Shown: positions 7,591 through 56,313 of the stretch, piece after piece
Layout of the letters: each line of letters opens with the position of its first letter
Position numbering within the stretch: the stretch's first letter is position 1
DNA from: Candidatus Marinacidobacterium sp.
Lineage (GTDB): Bacteria > Acidobacteriota > Vicinamibacteria > Marinacidobacterales > Marinacidobacteraceae
Reading direction: 5' to 3'
DNA: 64,000 nt
Assembly (NCBI GenBank): GCA_965223075.1
Contig: OZ244986.1
Span: forward strand, 3,421,630-3,485,629
Position numbers and translations under genes: made by a program
The notes under the pieces: model-generated
Told to the model about the DNA's origin: nothing
The model's input: the letters and a program-made list of their open reading frames with translations, nothing else
The model's database searches: none

Positions 7591-7955
7591 TAGCAGCCTG
7601 TGAACAAAGTCGTGCGGCCCAGTTGCTGTGAAAATGCAGTCCACTGGACGCCGAGAGCCGGGATGGCGCGTGGGTCAGGGAGCCCCCACCGGGAGAACTG
7701 GGCCGACCTTCTGGTCGGCACAGCGGCCCGTGGGGCCGCGGGCGGTTCATTGCCGTCCGCCTTCACGGGGCGCAGGCACGGAGCCCGCAGGCTGCGAACG
7801 GTGTCTGCCATTCCAATGTACGGATCACGCCGAACGCTGGGATTCCCGCCGAGAAGGGACCACCTCGGAACTGGGGGTCCTTCCCGCCGCCCGCCTTCGG
7901 CGGGCTGTGCCGGGCCCCACCGGGAGCACTGCCCAGAGGTCGGCGTTCCCGTGCC
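7591..7955. repeat. Composite repeat: MITE-A terminus plus family B modules plus two C units
   Basis: TAGCAGCCTGTG end; CCAGTTGCTGTGAAAA module; 7731-7913 is an inverted homolog of 41690-41870; C units at 7682 and 7914. Confidence 0.75.
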
Positions 7956-11299: not shown

Positions 11300-11665
11300 C
11301 TGGGAGTCCCCACCGGGAGAACTGGGCCACGTTCCAAGCCATCCCCGCGCCTCTTCCGCTGCCCGGCGGCGTAGGGGTGCCTGTGCCTGGTGGGGTACGT
11401 GCCGAGAGGTGCGCGATCACGGAACTGGGAAGTACCCCGTCTCGCCCCGCTGCGCGGGGCGGTGCCGGTGTGAACACCGGCGTCCCCTGGCCGGCGCGGC
11501 ATCCAGGGCGGGGGAGGGGGCGGCACTCACGTTGGTATAGCGCGGTGTCATCGGCGCTGGTTTCGCGCTCCCGCGCGATGCCGGCCGGAGGCCGGCGTTC
11601 CAAGCCGTCCCCGCGCTTCTTCCGGTCGGGGCTCCCCAACCGGTGTTCCGGATCCGGTCCTGCCG
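11300..11665. repeat. Family B modular REP-like repeat
   Basis: Modules CCGGTGTGAACACCGG and CACTCACGTTGG...TGCCGGCCGGAGGCCGGCGTTCCAAGCC shared with other loci; C unit at 11306. Confidence 0.75.
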
Positions 11666-26163: not shown

Positions 26164-26305
26164 TACCCACCGGGAGAAACCTCCATGATCGGGTCCTCCT
26201 GCACACCCCGCGGGTCCTGAAAGGCGTTCATCGAGGCTGGTTTCGCGCTCCCGCGCGATGCCGACCGGAGGTCGGCGTTCCAAGCCGTCCCCGCGCTTCT
26301 TCTCG
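26164..26305. repeat. Family B element (left end plus REP module)
   Basis: CCCACCGGGAGAAACCTCCATGATCGGGTCCTCC...TGCCGACCGGAGGTCGGCGTTCCAAGCC. Confidence 0.7.
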
Positions 26306-32399: not shown

Positions 32400-32616
32400 C
32401 AGCCTGTGGAAGAGTGGCGTGAGCGCCGAGAGCGGCGAGGCCCAGTTCTCCCGGTGGGGGTCCGGCTGACAAGGCGCGCGAGGGAGGAGCCCCCACCGGG
32501 AGAACTGGCCCGGGTGTATTTCGACCGAAGCACAACGATGAGCGACGCGAAGCGGCGCGGTTCAGCCGGGATGGATCGCCGGTCGAACGCCGCGTGGGTT
32601 TTGCCACAGGCTGTTA
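32398..32616. mobile_element. MITE family A copy with two C units
   Basis: CAGCCTGTGG...CCACAGGCTGTTA; C units at 32442 and 32489. Confidence 0.85.
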
Positions 32617-34279: not shown

Positions 34280-34645
34280 TCCAGGGAACGCCGACCTCCG
34301 GCCAGTTGCTGCGAAAATGCAGTCGCGTCGGGACGCCCACAACCCGGATGGCGCGCTAGCCAGGGAACGCCGGCCAGTTCTCCCGGTGGGGGCTTCACAC
34401 CGGCACCGCTGCGCGCAGCGCAGCGAGATCGCGCATCGCCGACCGCGAAGAAGCGCGGGGACGGCTTGGAGCCCCCACCGGGAGAACTGGGCCGGCCTCC
34501 GGCCGGCATCGCGCGGGAAACCAGCGCCGAGGACACTGCGCCATGCCAACGTGAGTGCCGCACCCCTTCCAAGCACCGGATGCCGCGATCGCTCACCGCT
34601 CCCCCTACCCGCGGCCGCGCCTTTTTCATGACCGGCGGGGTGTTT
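34280..34645 (-). repeat. Near full-length family B element with two C units
   Basis: Same module order as 43836-44214 on the opposite strand, ending GCAACTGG; C units at 34374 and 34471. Confidence 0.75.
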
Positions 34646-34747
34646 GGGCGGGGCGGAACCAAACGAGAACGCGCCGCCGCCGAGCACGCCGGAGGAGGGG
34701 AATCCTGCAGGTCTGGAGAGCGAGGGTTCCCTTTCCCCCGCCGGTCC

Positions 34748-41653: not shown

Positions 41654-42202
41654 AGCGCGAGGACGGCTTGGAACGCCGGCCTCCGGCCGGCACAGCCCGC
41701 CGAAGGCGGGCGGCGGGAAGGACTCCCCGTTCCGAGGTGGCGCCGTCCCGGCGGGAATCTCAGCGTTCGGCGGGATCCGTACCTGGGAGTGGCAGACACC
41801 GTTGGTCACAGTGCGGGCCACGTGCTTGCGTTCCGTGAAGGCGGACGGCAAGGAACCGCCCGCGGCCCTGGGGGTCGTTGTGTCGAGTCCCACCGGCAAG
41901 AACCCGCATGATCGGGTCCTCCGCACACCCCGCCAGGAAGAAAATGGGCGGCACTCACGCTGGCCTGGCGCCGCGTCATCCTCCCTGGTTTCGCGCTCCC
42001 GCGCGTGCCGGCCGGAGGCCGGCCCCATTCTCCCGGTGGGGGCTCCAAGCCGTCCCTGCCATGGCACCGTCGGCTTCTGCGCCCTCTCACCTGTTGGGGG
42101 TACGTGCCGAGACGGGAGCCATCCCGGCGATTTGGGGTCTTCGCCGCCGCGGCCCTGCGGGCCGCTGTGCCGGCCGGAGGCCGGCGTTCCAAGCCGTCCC
42201 CG
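41612..42202. repeat. Family B mosaic repeat cluster
   Basis: REP hairpins at 41670, 42006, 42168; long left end at 41887; C unit at 42024. Confidence 0.75.
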
Positions 42203-42282
42203 CCATTGCGCCATCGGCTATACGCGCTCTCACGCCCATCCGTCACCACGTTGCGGCAAATATGAGAAATACGGGCTAGCAG

Positions 42283-43737
42283 CAATACTGTTCACTTAGA
42301 CGATTCTGACGGTTGGCGGGCCGTCCCTGCGGCAGGTCGGAGCGTGTCTGGGCCGCAGGGGATAGCCGCTCATCTTGCGCTTGACCCCGCGGGGCGTGCA
42401 TCGGTTGCGACTGGACACCACCCGTTCGTCGAGGAGTTCGTCAAGGACGTGCTGGCGGAGGCTGTTCTGACGCTGAGGGGGGAATGGCTCCGTGGGTGAT
42501 GATGTTGCGACGGACCGCCCGAACCGCGTGGAGGTAGGAGAGTCGGTCTGGATCGTCTCCGCGCTGCCGGGCGGCGTCGTGCATGAGGGAGCGGATGGCG
42601 AAGTGGGCCAACATCAGGCCCCAGAACTCCTGGCGGACGAGTTCGGGGGTCTTGCTGCGGAGGACGATCCGGGGGCCGCGGAGGTGGGTCTTGAGTTCGT
42701 CCAGCGCGGTTTCGATCTCCCAGCGCTCGCGGTAGAGGGCGGCCAGCTCCGGGGCCGGGGCGCGGTCCGCATCCAGCACCGTGGTCAATAGCCGATACAG
42801 CGGTTCGGCGTCGGCCACGCCGGCCAGTTGATAGTCGATCACCCGCACCCGGACCGCGCGCCGCCCGTGGCGGCGGTCTTTGTCGGAGGGGTAGATCCGG
42901 CTCAGATAGGAGCCGTCGGCCAACGGGGTCTCCCGCGGCAGGCGCCGGTTCTTCTTGATGCGCCACAACAGATCCGCCCCCGTGGTGCGGGCCTGATTCC
43001 ACAGGGCGTAGCTGTAGAAGTTGCGGTCGGCGAGACACAACATGCCCGCCTGCAAGGAGGGCATCACGTCCTCGACCAGGCGGTGTTCGCTCACTTGGTA
43101 GCCGGCCATGCGGCTGGCAAACAGGACGTGGGTTCCGTTCTCGACCAAGGATACGAACCGGATCTGGGGGAAGGCACTGGCCCCGCGACTGGCGCCGGGG
43201 CGCCCGAAGGCCGCCGCGTTCGGGACCTCGTCCGCGACATCCAGGGTGCTGCCGTCCACGCTGACCACCTGCCACTGCCGATAGCCGCATCCCGGTTCCG
43301 ACGGCTGCCCCACCGGCCGCACCACGGCGTCATGCAGGGCTTGCAGCGGTTCGGCGCCCAGCCGCTGGCGCGCCTGCGAAATCCCCGACTTCCCCGCCAC
43401 CCGGGGGCGCGCCGACGGATCGCCCAACCACCGCAGCCCTTCCAGCAGGCAGCGCAGAACCTCTCGATACGACGACTGCATGTACAGCGCCAAGGCGATC
43501 ACGTAATACACCACCACGTGCGCCGGCAGATCCCGCTGACGGGCACTCTGCCGCCCCGTAGCCTGCAGCGCCTCGTCCACGGCCGCCCGCGGGATCCTCT
43601 GGTTCAGCACCCCGAGGCTGATGTAGTCCGTGAGCCGGCTCCCTTTCGGAAGCTCCGCGACTGTTCTCGCCATAGCCAACCTCCCGGCCAAGCCACGGGA
43701 AGAATAGCGAAGAAAATACCCTAAGTGAACAGTATTG
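42283..43737 (-). mobile_element. IS4-family insertion sequence (1455 bp)
   Basis: 17-bp perfect TIR CAATACTGTTCACTTAG; 10-bp TSD GGGCTAGCAG at 42273-42282 and 43738-43747. Confidence 0.95.
42441..43673 (-). CDS. IS4-family DDE transposase
   Basis: SVDGSTLDV, LADRNF, YRERWEIETALDELK (YREK signature). Confidence 0.93.
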   Translation of the reverse strand: MARTVAELPKGSRLTDYISLGVLNQRIPRAAVDEALQATGRQSARQRDLPAHVVVYYVIALALYMQSSYREVLRCLLEGLRWLGDPSARPRVAGKSGISQARQRLGAEPLQALHDAVVRPVGQPSEPGCGYRQWQVVSVDGSTLDVADEVPNAAAFGRPGASRGASAFPQIRFVSLVENGTHVLFASRMAGYQVSEHRLVEDVMPSLQAGMLCLADRNFYSYALWNQARTTGADLLWRIKKNRRLPRETPLADGSYLSRIYPSDKDRRHGRRAVRVRVIDYQLAGVADAEPLYRLLTTVLDADRAPAPELAALYRERWEIETALDELKTHLRGPRIVLRSKTPELVRQEFWGLMLAHFAIRSLMHDAARQRGDDPDRLSYLHAVRAVRRNIITHGAIPPSASEQPPPARP

Positions 43738-43741
43738 GGGC

Positions 43742-43835
43742 TAGCAGCCTGTGGACAAAGTGGCGTGCGCGCCGAGAGCGGCCAGTCCTCCCGGTGGGGG
43801 CGAGGCACGCGGCTGACAAGGCGCGCGAGGGAGGA
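43742..43835. mobile_element. Partial MITE family A with C unit
   Basis: TAGCAGCCTGTGGACAAAGT left half, C at 43782, cut at GGGAGGA by the family B left end. Confidence 0.75.
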
Positions 43836-44214
43836 GCCCCCACCCGGAGAAACCATCATGATCGGGTCCTCCAATACACCCCGCCTGGCATGAAAAAAGG
43901 CGCGGCCGCGGGTAGGGTGAGCGGTCGCGGCATCCGGGACTGGAAGAGGGTGCGGAACTCAAGTTGGCAGAGCGCCGTGTCATCGGCGCTGGTTTCGCGC
44001 TCCCGCGCGATGCCGACCGGAGGTCGGCGTTCCCTGGCCAGCGTGCCCCTCTGCCGGGTGGGGTAGGTACCGAGACGTGCGCCATCGCGGAACTGGGAAG
44101 TACGCCCTTTCGCCCCGCTGCGCGGGGCGGTGCCGGTGTGAACACCGGCGGTCCCTGACCGGCGGCGCCATCCGGATCGTTGGCGTACCTTTGGGACGTG
44201 CACTTACACGGCAA
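43836..44214 (+). repeat. Full-length family B element
   Basis: Begins GCCCCCACCCGGAGAAACC, ends GGGACGTGCACTTACACGGCAA (degenerate form of GGGACTGCCTTTTCATAGCAACTGG). Confidence 0.7.
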
Positions 44215-44250
44215 ACGCGCAGCGCTGGCCAGCCAGACGCCCCAGGCCCC

Positions 44251-45590
44251 CATAAGCGCTAACATAGAAGTTCGGACGCGAAGAAAGCCCGAACTTGGGG
44301 GCTCCGGGTGCGCGGTGGCTCGGCCAAGGATCTGGCAATGCCCTTCCAATCGTGGACAACGCGGGCGAGTGGCATCCGAGGCTTGATGGCTCCCACCACG
44401 TCGTCCAGGACATAGGCGAACTCACGCCACGCGCTGGGTGTCCGTTTCCGCCGCCAGTTCGTATCCCCAGGGGGAAACGGACTCGGCGTGGCGGATGAGC
44501 TTCTCCACCAGCAGCGCCACCAGAAGCTTGCCGTACAACCAGGCCCGGGCGCTGTCGTCATCGTATTTGGGCAGATGCCCCAACTCCGCCAGAGACTTCA
44601 GCCGCTTGAAGACCAACTCGACCTGCCAGCGGGTCCGATACCACTCCAACACCTGCCGGGCAGAGAAGTCCGCCTCGGGAAAGTTCGTGAACACGATCAC
44701 GAACTTGGCGAACTCAACCGTCTTGGGCTGGATCTCGGTGCCCTTCCGGCTGGCGTCGCTCCGGATCTTCTTCTGCGCCTGCCGGATGGCTTCCCGGCTC
44801 TTGCGCACCGCGCAGATCCGACCCGCCACCGTCCCGCCGTCCGCCGCTACCACCCGCGCCGGCCAGAACCCGATCTGGTCGGCGCGCCGCAGCGAACGCA
44901 CGGTCTCCAATAGGTCCAACGGCTCCCCCACCGCGCTTTGCAACGCCAGCGCCCGGGTGTTGACCCGGACCGTCGCATAGCCCCCAGAATGCGCCACGTG
45001 AACGAGCCCCGGCGCCCGCGCGTAGCCCCGGTCCGCCACTACGTGGTCCCCAGACTGGATCGGAAAGTGCGTCAGCGACTCTCCGCTTCCCTTCCCCTCC
45101 GTCGCCGTAACTCGGAAAAAATCGCACGAAAGCGACGGCAAGCGCACGCTGTAGTGGATCCGCCACAACGAACCCGTCTTCCCCGGTTCCCTCACCGTCG
45201 TCGCGTCCATCGCCCGAATCTGGAACCCGCCCTCCGCGGCACGCGACAACCCCTGCTCTCGGAACAGCTCCACGCACAGCGCCTGCAGCCATCCCCCCGC
45301 GTTGCGCAGCCGCTTCATCAGCGCCACGTCCGACAGCTCCGCCAAACCCACCTGCCGCGCTCGGACCGCCGTCTCGCGCAGCGAATACCCACACCCCAAA
45401 TGCATCAACAGCACCCGCAGCAGGTTCTCCACCGACTTGATCCCCCGAAGTCTCTTCAGCGCCCCGGTGTCCGCCGCCAACTCCCGCCAGTTCCCCGGCA
45501 AGAACGACTTCACGAGGTCCCAGTCCTCTTGCATCCCGTCGCTCCCCTCCACACTTCCCAGCGCGAATGGAGCCTATGTTAGCGCTTATG
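44251..45590 (-). mobile_element. IS4-family insertion sequence (1340 bp)
   Basis: 17-bp perfect TIR CATAAGCGCTAACATAG; 11-bp TSD CCCCAGGCCCC at 44240-44250 and 45591-45601. Confidence 0.95.
44422..45534 (-). CDS. IS4-family DDE transposase
   Basis: AMDATT, VADRGY, YRTRWQVELVFKRLKS. Confidence 0.93.
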   Translation of the reverse strand: MQEDWDLVKSFLPGNWRELAADTGALKRLRGIKSVENLLRVLLMHLGCGYSLRETAVRARQVGLAELSDVALMKRLRNAGGWLQALCVELFREQGLSRAAEGGFQIRAMDATTVREPGKTGSLWRIHYSVRLPSLSCDFFRVTATEGKGSGESLTHFPIQSGDHVVADRGYARAPGLVHVAHSGGYATVRVNTRALALQSAVGEPLDLLETVRSLRRADQIGFWPARVVAADGGTVAGRICAVRKSREAIRQAQKKIRSDASRKGTEIQPKTVEFAKFVIVFTNFPEADFSARQVLEWYRTRWQVELVFKRLKSLAELGHLPKYDDDSARAWLYGKLLVALLVEKLIRHAESVSPWGYELAAETDTQRVA

Positions 45591-55358: not shown

Positions 55359-55736
55359 GGTTCGAGTCGTTCAGACGGTCGCCGGCTCCTTCGGGAGCGG
55401 GAGGAAAGTCCGAACTCCGCAAGGCAGTGCGCTGGGTAACCCCCAGTCCGGGTGACCGGAAGGAAAGTGCCACAGAAAACAAACCGCCTCTCCCTCCGGG
55501 GAGCGGCAAGGGTGAAAAGGTGCGGTAAGAGCGCACCGCCTGGGCAGTGATGTCCAGGGCACGGTAAACCCCGCATGGAGCAAGACCAAATAGAGAAGCA
55601 CCCGAGGGCCGCCTGTCCGAGCTTCCGGGTAGGTCGCTTGACCCGTCGGGTAACCGCCGGGCTAGATGCATGACCGTCACCTCGCCGCGGGCAACCGCGC
55701 CGGGGAACAGAATTCGGCTTACGAGCGGCTCGGACC
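55359..55736 (+). ncRNA. rnpB: RNase P RNA (type A)
   Basis: GAGGAAAGTCCGAACTC, GGAAAGTGCCACAGAAA, GGTAAACCCC...GAGCAAG, ACAGAATTCGGCTTA; P1 pairing; TAGAAT -10 at 55346. Confidence 0.97.
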
Positions 55737-55745
55737 CTCGGAGCG

Positions 55746-56313
55746 CCGGCCAGTTGCTATGAAAAGGCAGTCCCGCCGGGACGCCGATAGCCGGGATGGC
55801 GCGCCGACCAGGGAACGCCGGTGTTCACACCGGCACCGCCCCGCGCAGCGGGGCGAGAGGGCGTATTTCCCGGTTCCGGGATGGTGCACGTCTCGGCGCA
55901 TACCCCACCCGGCAGAGGGGCGCGCCGGCCAGGGAACGCCGACCTCCGGTCCGCACCGCGCGCCGAGAGGCGCGCGATACATCGCTGAGGGAGAAGAGGC
56001 GCGGGGACGGCTTGGAACGCCGACCTCCGGCCAGTTGCTATGAAAAGGCAGTCCCGCCGGGACGCCGATAGCCGGGATGGCGCGCCGACCAGGGAACGCC
56101 GGTGTTCACACCGGCACCGCCCCGCGCAGCGGGGCGAGAGGGCGTACTTCCCGGTTCCGGGATGGTGCACGTCTCGGCGCATACCCCACCCGGCAGAGGG
56201 GCGCGCCGGCCAGGGAACGCCGACCTCCGGTCCGCACCGCGCGCCGAGAGGCGCGCGATACATCGCTGAGGGAGAAGAGGCGCGGGGACGGCTTGGAACG
56301 CCGACCTCCGGCC
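55746..56313. repeat. 281-bp near-perfect tandem duplication of a family B segment, followed by a C unit
   Basis: 55746-56026 repeated at 56027-56307; one mismatch seen by eye. Confidence 0.9.

Follow-up and report, generated by a model that had tools for sequence, protein, structure and literature searches.

Insertion sequences (ISs) of the IS110 group, including IS621, were described as elements that combine a recombinase with DEDD and Tnp domains with a left end encoding a structured RNA; they have no terminal inverted repeats, recombine at a two-letter core and target a repeat sequence (PMC11208160, PMC11208158). The guides of this bridge RNA copy the left flank plus core and the right end plus core, and they complement the core plus right flank (PMC11208160, PMC11208158). 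A recombinase-less companion was reported from Pseudomonas putida KT2440, where MITEPpu9, the ssr9 module of ISPpu9, has IS end boxes on both sides, recombines at an invariant dinucleotide, occurs alone or in tandem with the IS in an intergenic repeat, and was proposed to be moved by the IS enzyme in trans (PMC12288879). Here we investigated a 64,000-nucleotide stretch (the window, C1:3421630-3485629) from the genome of Candidatus Marinacidobacterium sp. (G000; 4.195 Mb, 67% G+C, one contig), in which a ~380-base element, element B (about 365 nt; its profile was built over 387 positions), runs from 43836 to 44214 together with half of a repeated 20-mer, GCCCCCACCGGGAGAACTGG. We consider it likely that B is a gene-less, IS110-derived element integrated at the central AA of the 20-mer, and that the 20-mer is its landing site.

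All traits listed above for MITEPpu9 are found or proposed for B as well, and those of the IS110 group recur in an autonomous relative of B, called IS1 here. The differences are as follows. MITEPpu9 was described with 8 copies, an interior consisting of one small RNA gene, a core AG and the repetitive extragenic palindrome (REP) as target, whereas for B 93 left ends and 118 right ends were counted, its interior is composed of host repeats as a mosaic, its core is AA and its target is the 20-mer (PMC12288879). Moreover, unlike in the MITEPpu9 account, a second derivative here keeps a bridge RNA, a guide of IS1 matches the right junction of its derivative, and B is known from sequence alone, without circles (PMC12288879). 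REP-targeting IS110/IS1111 elements such as ISPpu10 and ISPpu9 also land in one orientation in a multi-copy intergenic repeat (PMC12288879); in the present genome, that role falls to a module of only 20 letters, which in turn lies within other repeats. Compared with IS621, the core is AA instead of CT, the order of the target guides is opposite, and no right-donor guide was recognised here (PMC11208158); also unlike IS621, the IS1 recombinase clade is known only from uncultured genomes and, in this study, only as sequence. Neisserial intergenic mosaic elements form similar mosaic arrays of recurring modules with sharp boundaries; they compare with the repeat landscape around B and not with its ends, which are of IS110 type. 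The mechanism is that of a family already described, for which a single close precedent has been published, and the ISPpu9/MITEPpu9 paper was the sole directly relevant literature found on non-autonomous or miniature IS110 elements with a bridge RNA.

Copies of B were collected genome-wide, as the first-pass annotation of this DNA had proposed, and the termini were defined from 524 profile matches, among which 93 started at the left end, 118 reached the right end and 22 were full-length singles. B starts directly after GCCCCCACCGGGAGAA, and its usual right end is ..CACAGCAA|CTGG; therefore, the 20-mer is split at its AA. All seven full copies that were aligned began with the first 16 letters of the 20-mer followed by ACC.TCATGATCGGGTCCTCC, and six of them ended in ..TTTCAC(A/G)GCAA, followed by CTGG and then by common right flanks of plain 20-mers. 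The last 8 nt were CACAGCAA in 55 and CACGGCAA in 22 of the 118 right ends, and the letters that came next were CTGG (59), CCGG (16) or CTGC (7). A right-end pattern blind to the next letters was followed by CTGG in 48 of 78 cases. Base composition predicts under 1 in 100, so the proposed link between right end and CTGG held well beyond chance. The two ends also co-occurred in fixed orientation, as had been claimed: 43 of the 93 left ends had a same-strand right end within 500 nt (34 of them at 300-460 nt), while the opposite-strand control gave 2/93 and 0/93, respectively.

The interior of B is a mosaic of modules that were found alone 45-430 times, with recurrent break points in the profile. 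Every position of the repetitive stretch 43750-44214 is common to 45-430 other places, with sharp steps at 43835/43836 and at the module borders; the similarity stops at 44214-44225, and eight other places match nearly the whole of 43836-44214 at 82-90% identity. One 114-nt piece (profile 217-330) forms a head-to-tail array of about six units beside a B copy (C1:3943226-3943955). Considering these modules, we also weighed the explanation that there is no element at all and that B consists of chance-recurrent intergenic modules shuffled by recombination. The modules occurring alone with sharp break points, the 114-nt tandem array and the fact that about half of the ends are solo would agree with it. 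Nevertheless, the pairing of ends at 300-460 nt (34/93 vs 0/93 on the opposite strand), the homology of the ends to those of an autonomous IS and the recurrence of the junction with the 20-mer in 13 of 15 genomes of the genus make this explanation extremely improbable.

The 20-mer itself is far more abundant than B. The window has 18 matches (at most 2 mismatches) against none in 100 shuffles, and in the genome 377 matches are exact and 713 near-exact, the surrounding repeats being of many kinds; the flank AGGGAGGA alone is common to 91 plain 20-mers. The flanks of B are those of plain 20-mers: its left 8-nt flank was also the flank of a plain 20-mer in 52 of 93 cases (random 8-mers, 25/2000) and its right one in 50 of 82 (random 8-mers, 32/2000). 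The core before the left end of B was AA in 35 of 37 cases and never GA, which stands in 68 of 626 plain 20-mers. Four junction types were present, namely the plain 20-mer (713), the left junction (70 by pattern in G000), the right junction (59/118) and the right-end|left-end tandem ..GCAA|ACCC.. (3), the last without 20-mer halves. As judged from a comparison of these four types, the crossover lies within the AA. A pattern for left ends alone was too loose, with 138 matches genome-wide: 68 followed the left half of the 20-mer, 3 followed another right end and 67 followed other sequence. About 14 of these 67 carry the degenerate form known from a 586-bp repeat family, and many of the remainder look like chance matches. 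In another genome (G009:C1:649265-650051), three left junctions lie exactly 383 nt apart as tandem units of 20-mer half plus B.

The distribution of the 20-mer was investigated in 24 genomes of the family (15 of the genus, 9 of other genera) and 16 genomes of two neighbouring families. With at most 1 mismatch it was found in 20 of the 24 family genomes, including all 15 of the genus and 5 of the 9 from other genera, and it was absent from all 16 genomes of the neighbouring families. The left junction was present in 13 of the 15 genus genomes. It was not found in four of the five other-genus genomes that hold the 20-mer (four genera in all), and in the fifth a single match with two mismatches did not exceed the reversed-pattern control. 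Among the four, G018 holds 244 20-mers. In a different genome, G013, 1497 20-mers stand beside 29 left junctions, and an IS1 relative was not found at E<=1e-30. The presence of the 20-mer in genera without B junctions therefore marks it as a target and not a footprint.

These results bear on the first suggestion of the first-pass annotation, that the 20-mer is an excision footprint or minimal derivative of B. The corresponding explanation, in which the 20-mer is a scar made of the two tips of B, draws on the identity of the 20-mer with the joined tips and on the excess of plain 20-mers (713) over B (about 100 ends). It is very unlikely, given that IS110-type recombination was described as conservative, restoring the target (PMC11208160, PMC12288879), that the 20-mer occurs in five genomes of four other genera where the left junction did not exceed the control, and that only 29 left junctions accompany the 1497 20-mers of G013. 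The derivative idea likewise found no support: the right-end guide described below stops at ..GCAA, the tandems have no halves and the 20-mer exists in other genera. The second suggestion, an att-like target with an AA core, was borne out by an autonomous IS110-family element with homologous ends that sits at AA, and by guides that match the 20-mer.

A search for an autonomous copy, also proposed earlier, succeeded. The IS110 recombinase domain (PF01548) was found at ten places in the genome, and two of them (C1:3779747-3780190 on the plus strand and 2481122-2481565 on the minus strand) are the copies of IS1, an intact IS110-family element with the same kind of ends as B. Both copies stand directly to the right of B copies, with the junction ..TTTTCACAGCAA|ACCCTCATGATCGG. 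IS1 is 1758 bp long, and its two copies are 99.94% identical. Its open reading frame (ORF) of 419 amino acids matches PF01548/DEDD_Tnp_IS110 (E 2.4e-22, residues 15-162) and PF02371/Transposase_20 (E 4.1e-21, residues 259-345). IS1 starts with (A)CCCTCATGATCGG and ends with ..TTACACCGCAA, after which CTGGGCCGCGTGGG follows. The left end of 321 nt and the right end of 177 nt give the layout described for the IS110 group (PMC11208160). Neither of its ends, ACCCTCATGATCGG.. and ..TTACACCGCAA, is an inverted copy of the other, and AA is shared at both junctions, with no target duplication beyond this core; the earlier description of B as lacking terminal inverted repeats was correct, and this is a trait of the IS110 family. 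The left end of B is 77% identical to IS1 (36/47 by blastn), B profile positions 15-66 match IS left ends at E 1.6e-9 to 1e-5, and the right tips are alike (CACAGCAA or CACGGCAA in B, ..CACAGCAA or ..CACCGCAA in the ISs). A related element, IS1b (71% amino acid identity to IS1), interrupts a 20-mer in G001 and G004, with GCCCCCACCGGGAGAA before it and CTGGGCCGCC after it. A 3' remnant of IS1b exists at the same locus in G000, where it is a dead sister element.

Since B has no terminal inverted repeats and is oriented to its target, an affiliation with the IS200/IS605 type was considered as well. Elements of that type have no terminal inverted repeats and insert beside a short target without duplicating it. 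Two Y1_Tnp genes, of IS200-like or REP-associated type, exist in G000 (C1:1230690-1230923 and 1142590-1142823; L001, L002), as a single-strand system with a Y1 transposase would demand. Yet no 20-mer with at most 3 mismatches was found within about 1.5 kb of either gene, the only gene found between ends of the B kind encodes a DEDD recombinase of IS110 type, and RNA guides match the flanks. We therefore give almost no credence to B being a non-autonomous IS200/IS605-type element.

Relatives of the IS1 recombinase (46-70% amino acid identity) were collected from genomes of other phyla (64 loci, L048-L111). They are multi-copy in metagenome-assembled genomes of Alphaproteobacteria, Longimicrobiales, Paracoccaceae, Bryobacterales and a gammaproteobacterium, so horizontal spread is indicated. 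The ends of seven multi-copy families outside the phylum were fixed by copy-to-copy comparison: the left ends start with A(C/T)..CATGAT, the right ends resemble ..TTACACAGCAA, AA stands at the junction, and two of the lineages show tandem right-end|left-end junctions. Conservation in the left flank of these lineages is limited to AA and 1-4 letters before it, and the right flank is almost unconstrained; they therefore look far less site-specific.

Whether the left ends of such elements specify a bridge RNA was evaluated from an alignment of 11 lineages (the seven from other phyla, IS1, IS1b, a further relative IS1c, and the mini-elements introduced below). Folded as a single sequence, the left end of IS1 did not surpass its shuffles (z -1.06), so the alignment was needed. 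At the IS1 locus, Rfam gave two sub-threshold chance matches only and no bridge-RNA family. The 11 left ends share a scaffold, and its 12-bp outer stem keeps pairing through two-sided changes. The first of the guide comparisons was made as a match matrix and the second was read by eye from the left-end alignment. The segment before AAACTGTCC, the putative left-target guide, equals the left flank plus AA of each lineage: GGAGAA in IS1b and the mini-elements (as in the left half of the 20-mer), CCCTAA in IS1c, and ACCAA, GCAGAA, GTCAA, TCCAA, CCTAA and CCTAAA in other lineages. Cognate matches covered 4-6 letters, whereas non-cognate ones mostly covered 2-3 and reached 4-6 only with alike left flanks. 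The segment after the second GGACG, the putative left-donor guide, equals the element's own right end and changes in step with the lineage (CACAGGAA in IS1b, CACAACAA in Longimicrobiales, GAGAAAA in the Paracoccaceae lineage, ATAGCAA, and CACAGCAA in others). As expected of a right-target guide, the sequence that follows the first GGACG is complementary to AA and the right flank next to it. This was supported in 4 informative lineages, with GCCAGTT for AACTGGC (IS1), CGCTTT for AAAGCG (Longimicrobiales) and CCTTT for AAAGG, and the segment is T-rich where right flanks are A-rich. Based on these correspondences, the IS1-type left end is predicted to encode a bridge RNA. Because its right-end guide stops at ..GCAA, the CTGG and the left 16 nt are flank and not element.

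A profile of the RNA scaffold matched exactly six places in the genome, namely the two IS1 copies and four mini-elements. In the latter, which are 285 nt long and have no recombinase gene, a left end that includes the RNA runs into a right end ..TTACATAGCAA. Each sits in a 20-mer at the AA. Three of the four share 99.3-100% identity; 1 of 285 letters varies in the interiors and 2 of 20 in the adjacent 20-mer halves, which argues that the halves are older than the inserts.

The two IS1 copies depart from this pattern. Their left-target guide reads AGCAGCAA (CAGCAA) instead of GGAGAA, which is the right tip of B and not the left half of the 20-mer, and both copies indeed follow ..TTTCACAGCAA of two different B copies. 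These two B copies are about 85% identical to each other while the IS1 copies are 99.9% identical, so two independent insertions of IS1 took place. Genome-wide, CAGCAACTGG was counted at 64 sites and GGAGAACTGG at 609.

B itself has no sign of either bridge RNA or gene. The bridge-RNA profile matched no B copy, and beyond profile position 66 B has only weak likeness to IS left ends. No Pfam family was found in the three ORFs over B, indels between copies were not in multiples of three, and an Rfam search of B at E<=1 gave no match. Without terminal inverted repeats and target-site duplication, B also falls outside the classical MITEs (miniature transposable elements with inverted repeats). What B keeps as donor ends is a left-end stretch of about 50 nt together with the tip ..CACAGCAA on the right. 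Lacking bridge RNA and gene, B is therefore a non-autonomous, ends-only derivative of the MITEPpu9 kind.

According to the mechanism that we propose, a recombinase guided by the bridge RNA would exchange strands at the two-letter core AA, which the target would have in common with the junction of a circular donor (..CACAGC-AA-ACCC..). For the B lineage the target would be GCCCCCACCGGGAG-AA-CTGG, and after integration the first 16 letters would precede the element and CTGG would follow it, the arrangement noticed in the first-pass annotation. B, carrying neither RNA nor recombinase, would have to be moved in trans. The guide change from GGAGAA to CAGCAA would make IS1 land at the boundary of the B right tip and CTGG, giving B-IS1 tandems; the tandems are evident from their positions, and from the guide sequences we infer the change as their cause. 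A donor-type "half-match" to the B tip, as treated in a preprint (bioRxiv 10.64898/2026.08.31.748434), could also contribute to the landing of IS1. Many B copies would then have multiplied passively, as cargo of a TA-flanked inverted-repeat element.

The last step is based on the host element of B. This element has inverted ends CAGCCGGTGG../..CCACCGGCTG and TA flanks, with terminal inverted repeats and a target duplication. All of the nine best-scoring B copies have its terminal repeat on at least one side, although the motif is loose (background ~9% per 50 nt) and such counts are rough. At all three orthologous B sites examined, the relatives were without the whole host element and its B. 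It follows that these copies did not arise by integration into a resident 20-mer, which counts against our reading at those sites, and that much of the copy number of B came from riding another mobile element.

There are further observations that weigh against our reading. Solo ends, with no partner within 10 kb, make up 38 of 93 left and 60 of 118 right ends. The focal copy is followed by ACGC.. and not CTGG, and has one mismatch in its left 16 nt. Copies of B are at most 94.3% identical to each other (best pair; median 78.9%), and its present-day mobility is not evident; B looks old and no longer active. A right-donor guide was not found, as no segment on either side of the left-donor guide covaried by eye, and the right-flank guide lies 5' of the left-flank guide in the RNA, the reverse of IS621. 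The ends of IS1c were set by homology alone, and no empty site for it was found in G000, G001 and G004. In the contigs of four public runs, which are a poor test, the IS1 locus gave no right-end/left-end joint, no empty-site bridge and no empty-versus-filled polymorphism. The IS1 stretch is present in contigs of several public studies. Loose ends at the B right tip in the public runs continue with CTGG.. or CTGC.. and may derive from other B copies, and a few RNA-library contigs touch the left end and ORF of IS1, giving no evidence on transcription.

Finally, at the one informative mini-element site (C1:1526528), the sister species are without both mini-element and 20-mer: G001 and G004 have GGCTTGGA-AC-GCCGGCC, and G000 has the 20-mer plus mini-element in place of AC. 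The 20-mer and its insert may have arrived there in one step, which would go against integration into a resident 20-mer. On account of the differing halves, we favour an order in which the mini-element entered a 20-mer that was already there, both arrivals being later than the species split. For the other mini-elements, the relatives of one (L038) differ entirely downstream, another (L040) had no orthologous-site match at E<=1e-90, and for a third (L041) only distant flank was common to relatives.

This site is also an argument for a moving unit that would include the halves of the 20-mer and have the ends GCCCCC.. and ..CTGG, B and the mini-elements being its long forms or passengers; this comes near the minimal-derivative suggestion of the first-pass annotation. 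Gene conversion among the repeats, or some unknown mechanism, would then account for the spread of the 20-mer. Besides the joint presence of 20-mer and mini-element where G001 and G004 have AC, the common flanks of B and the 20-mer would fit such a unit, as would one full B copy (C1:3299280-3299674) with a 20-mer variant (GCCCCCACCGGGAGGACTGG) in the loop of an internal hairpin, the same hairpin being empty in six other copies; B is therefore among the sequences that the 20-mer enters. On the other hand, the guides put the crossover at the AA, with GGGAG-AA and AA-CTGG as target and ..CACAGC-AA as element end. The tandem junctions have no halves, the halves beside near-identical mini-elements differ at 2/20 against 1/285 inside, and in other phyla, members of this IS clade share these ends although their flanks are quite unlike. 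A moving unit of this kind is accordingly doubtful. Because one orthologous site is without both 20-mer and mini-element in the sister species, we also keep in view a somewhat less doubtful, still unlikely reading, that the 20-mer is a mobile landing pad which spreads by its own mechanism and carries IS110-type passengers.

Within the window, the focal copy of B lies between two other insertion sequences. Directly upstream on the plus strand is the left arm of the TA-flanked host element (43746..43835), which ends in ..GCGCGCGAGGGAGGA, holds a reversed 20-mer variant at 43782-43801 and has its terminal-repeat motif 91 nt upstream of B. The left half of the split 20-mer (GCCCCCACCCGGAGAA, with the mismatch mentioned above) occupies 43836..43851 on the plus strand, with the AA core at 43850-43851. 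The left end of B (43852..43900, plus; ACC.TCATGATCGG..CACCCCGCC..CATG) is homologous to the terminal ~50 nt of the left end of IS1 and its relatives, the mosaic interior (43901..44174, plus) has a hairpin module GCCGACCGGAGGTCGGCGTTCC at about 44004-44033, and the right end (44175..44214, plus) reads ..CTTACACGGCAA, like the IS right ends ..GTTACACAGCAA, its final AA being the core. The right flank ACGCGCAGCGCTGG.. (44215..44247, plus) is followed directly by a DDE-transposase insertion sequence (44248..45590, minus; Pfam DDE_Tnp_1), which has a 100% identical twin in the genome and three more copies at 79% identity. On the other side, an IS4-family insertion sequence (42261..43745, minus; transposase about 42441-43676; Pfam Nterm_IS4 and DDE_Tnp_1) abuts the left arm of the host element and has 4 further copies at 95.9-99.8% identity and, in addition, one partial copy. 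Neither is part of B, and with two different DDE insertion sequences around it, the stretch is an insertion hotspot.

Other traces of B in the window largely agree with the first-pass annotation. Its long form (16 nt, then A-C-N3-CATGATCGGGTCCTCC..ACACCCCGC) was recovered at 43836 and 26164, and at 41887 in the degenerate form GTCCCACCGGCAAGAA; a further degenerate copy claimed at 11631 was unconvincing, as it had no profile match. At 26166..26287 (plus), a solo left end of B stands after the diverged left half TACCCACCGGGAGAA and is followed by a short interior piece. At 41889..42215 (plus), the degenerate left junction GTCCCACCGGCAAGAA|CCCGCATGATCGG with B-like modules is a fossil in the 586-bp repeat family (41657-42242), of which at least 12 further near-full-length copies exist at 85-94% identity. 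The fossil junction in this family follows a conserved 230-nt part of unknown nature, and the window copy of the repeat abuts the truncated 3' end of a permease-like ORF. The module ending in ..TTTTCAnAGCAACTGG was likewise found on the minus strand at 7619, 34302, 55750 and 56031. The segments 43836-44214 and 34302-34645 had been said to carry their modules in the same order between both ends; the order is the same, but the second copy (34303..34651, minus; profile 33-386; ending in ..TTTTCGCAGCAA|CTGG), in which two 20-mers are nested, is missing its left end. A solo right end ..TTTTCACAGCAA|CTGG lies at 7619..7723 (minus) and is followed by the terminal repeat of the host element. The unoccupied 20-mer at 32489..32508 (plus) is a paralogous empty site to B at 43836, and both do occupy the same host position after GCGCGCGAGGGAGGA, as had been noticed. 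Two right-hand parts of B (profile 158-386; 55751-55984 and 56032-56265, minus) each end in ..TTTTCATAGCAA|CTGG, and the module at 56031 and the short form at 56312 both precede CCGGAGGTCGGCGTTCCAAGCC, confirming that they share a junction. These parts belong to two tandem 281-nt units that begin within 15 nt downstream of the RNase P RNA gene (55363-55736; Rfam 309 bits), each unit carrying the right-hand 230 nt of B. At Rfam gathering scores, the window yielded RNase P RNA and two tRNAs only.

A second IS110-family element, with a 437-amino-acid frame and about 2150 bp, was observed elsewhere in G000 (C1: 1222551, 1273771, 1283323, 1733939, 1836742, 2491328 and 503698; L003-L009). Six copies are about 99.7-99.9% identical (one 5'-truncated) and one is at 96%. 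Its site is the interior of the hairpin module (..GCCGACCGGAGGTC | element | CGGCGTTCC..), which is also abundant in this genome, so that another common repeat houses an IS110-type element of its own.

Natural examples are scarce in print for the bridge-recombinase field, and the elements described here offer several. B is a large ends-only family that would need RNA and enzyme in trans, the mini-elements are recombinase-less and keep their own bridge RNA, and the clade of IS1 has an AA core and an apparently permuted target loop. Moreover, two changes in the target guide of IS1 have turned it away from the 20-mer and towards the right junction of IS1's derivative, which is guide reprogramming in nature. 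As the 20-mer was not made by B, its spread needs its own explanation. If the 20-mer were a mobile landing pad, there would be four nested selfish layers, with the host element containing the 20-mer, the 20-mer containing B or a mini-element, and these being targeted by IS1; bridge RNAs would then co-evolve with a self-multiplying target. With B as a likely IS110 derivative, RNA-guided IS110 recombination would explain one layer of the dense nested repeats in these sponge-associated Acidobacteriota.

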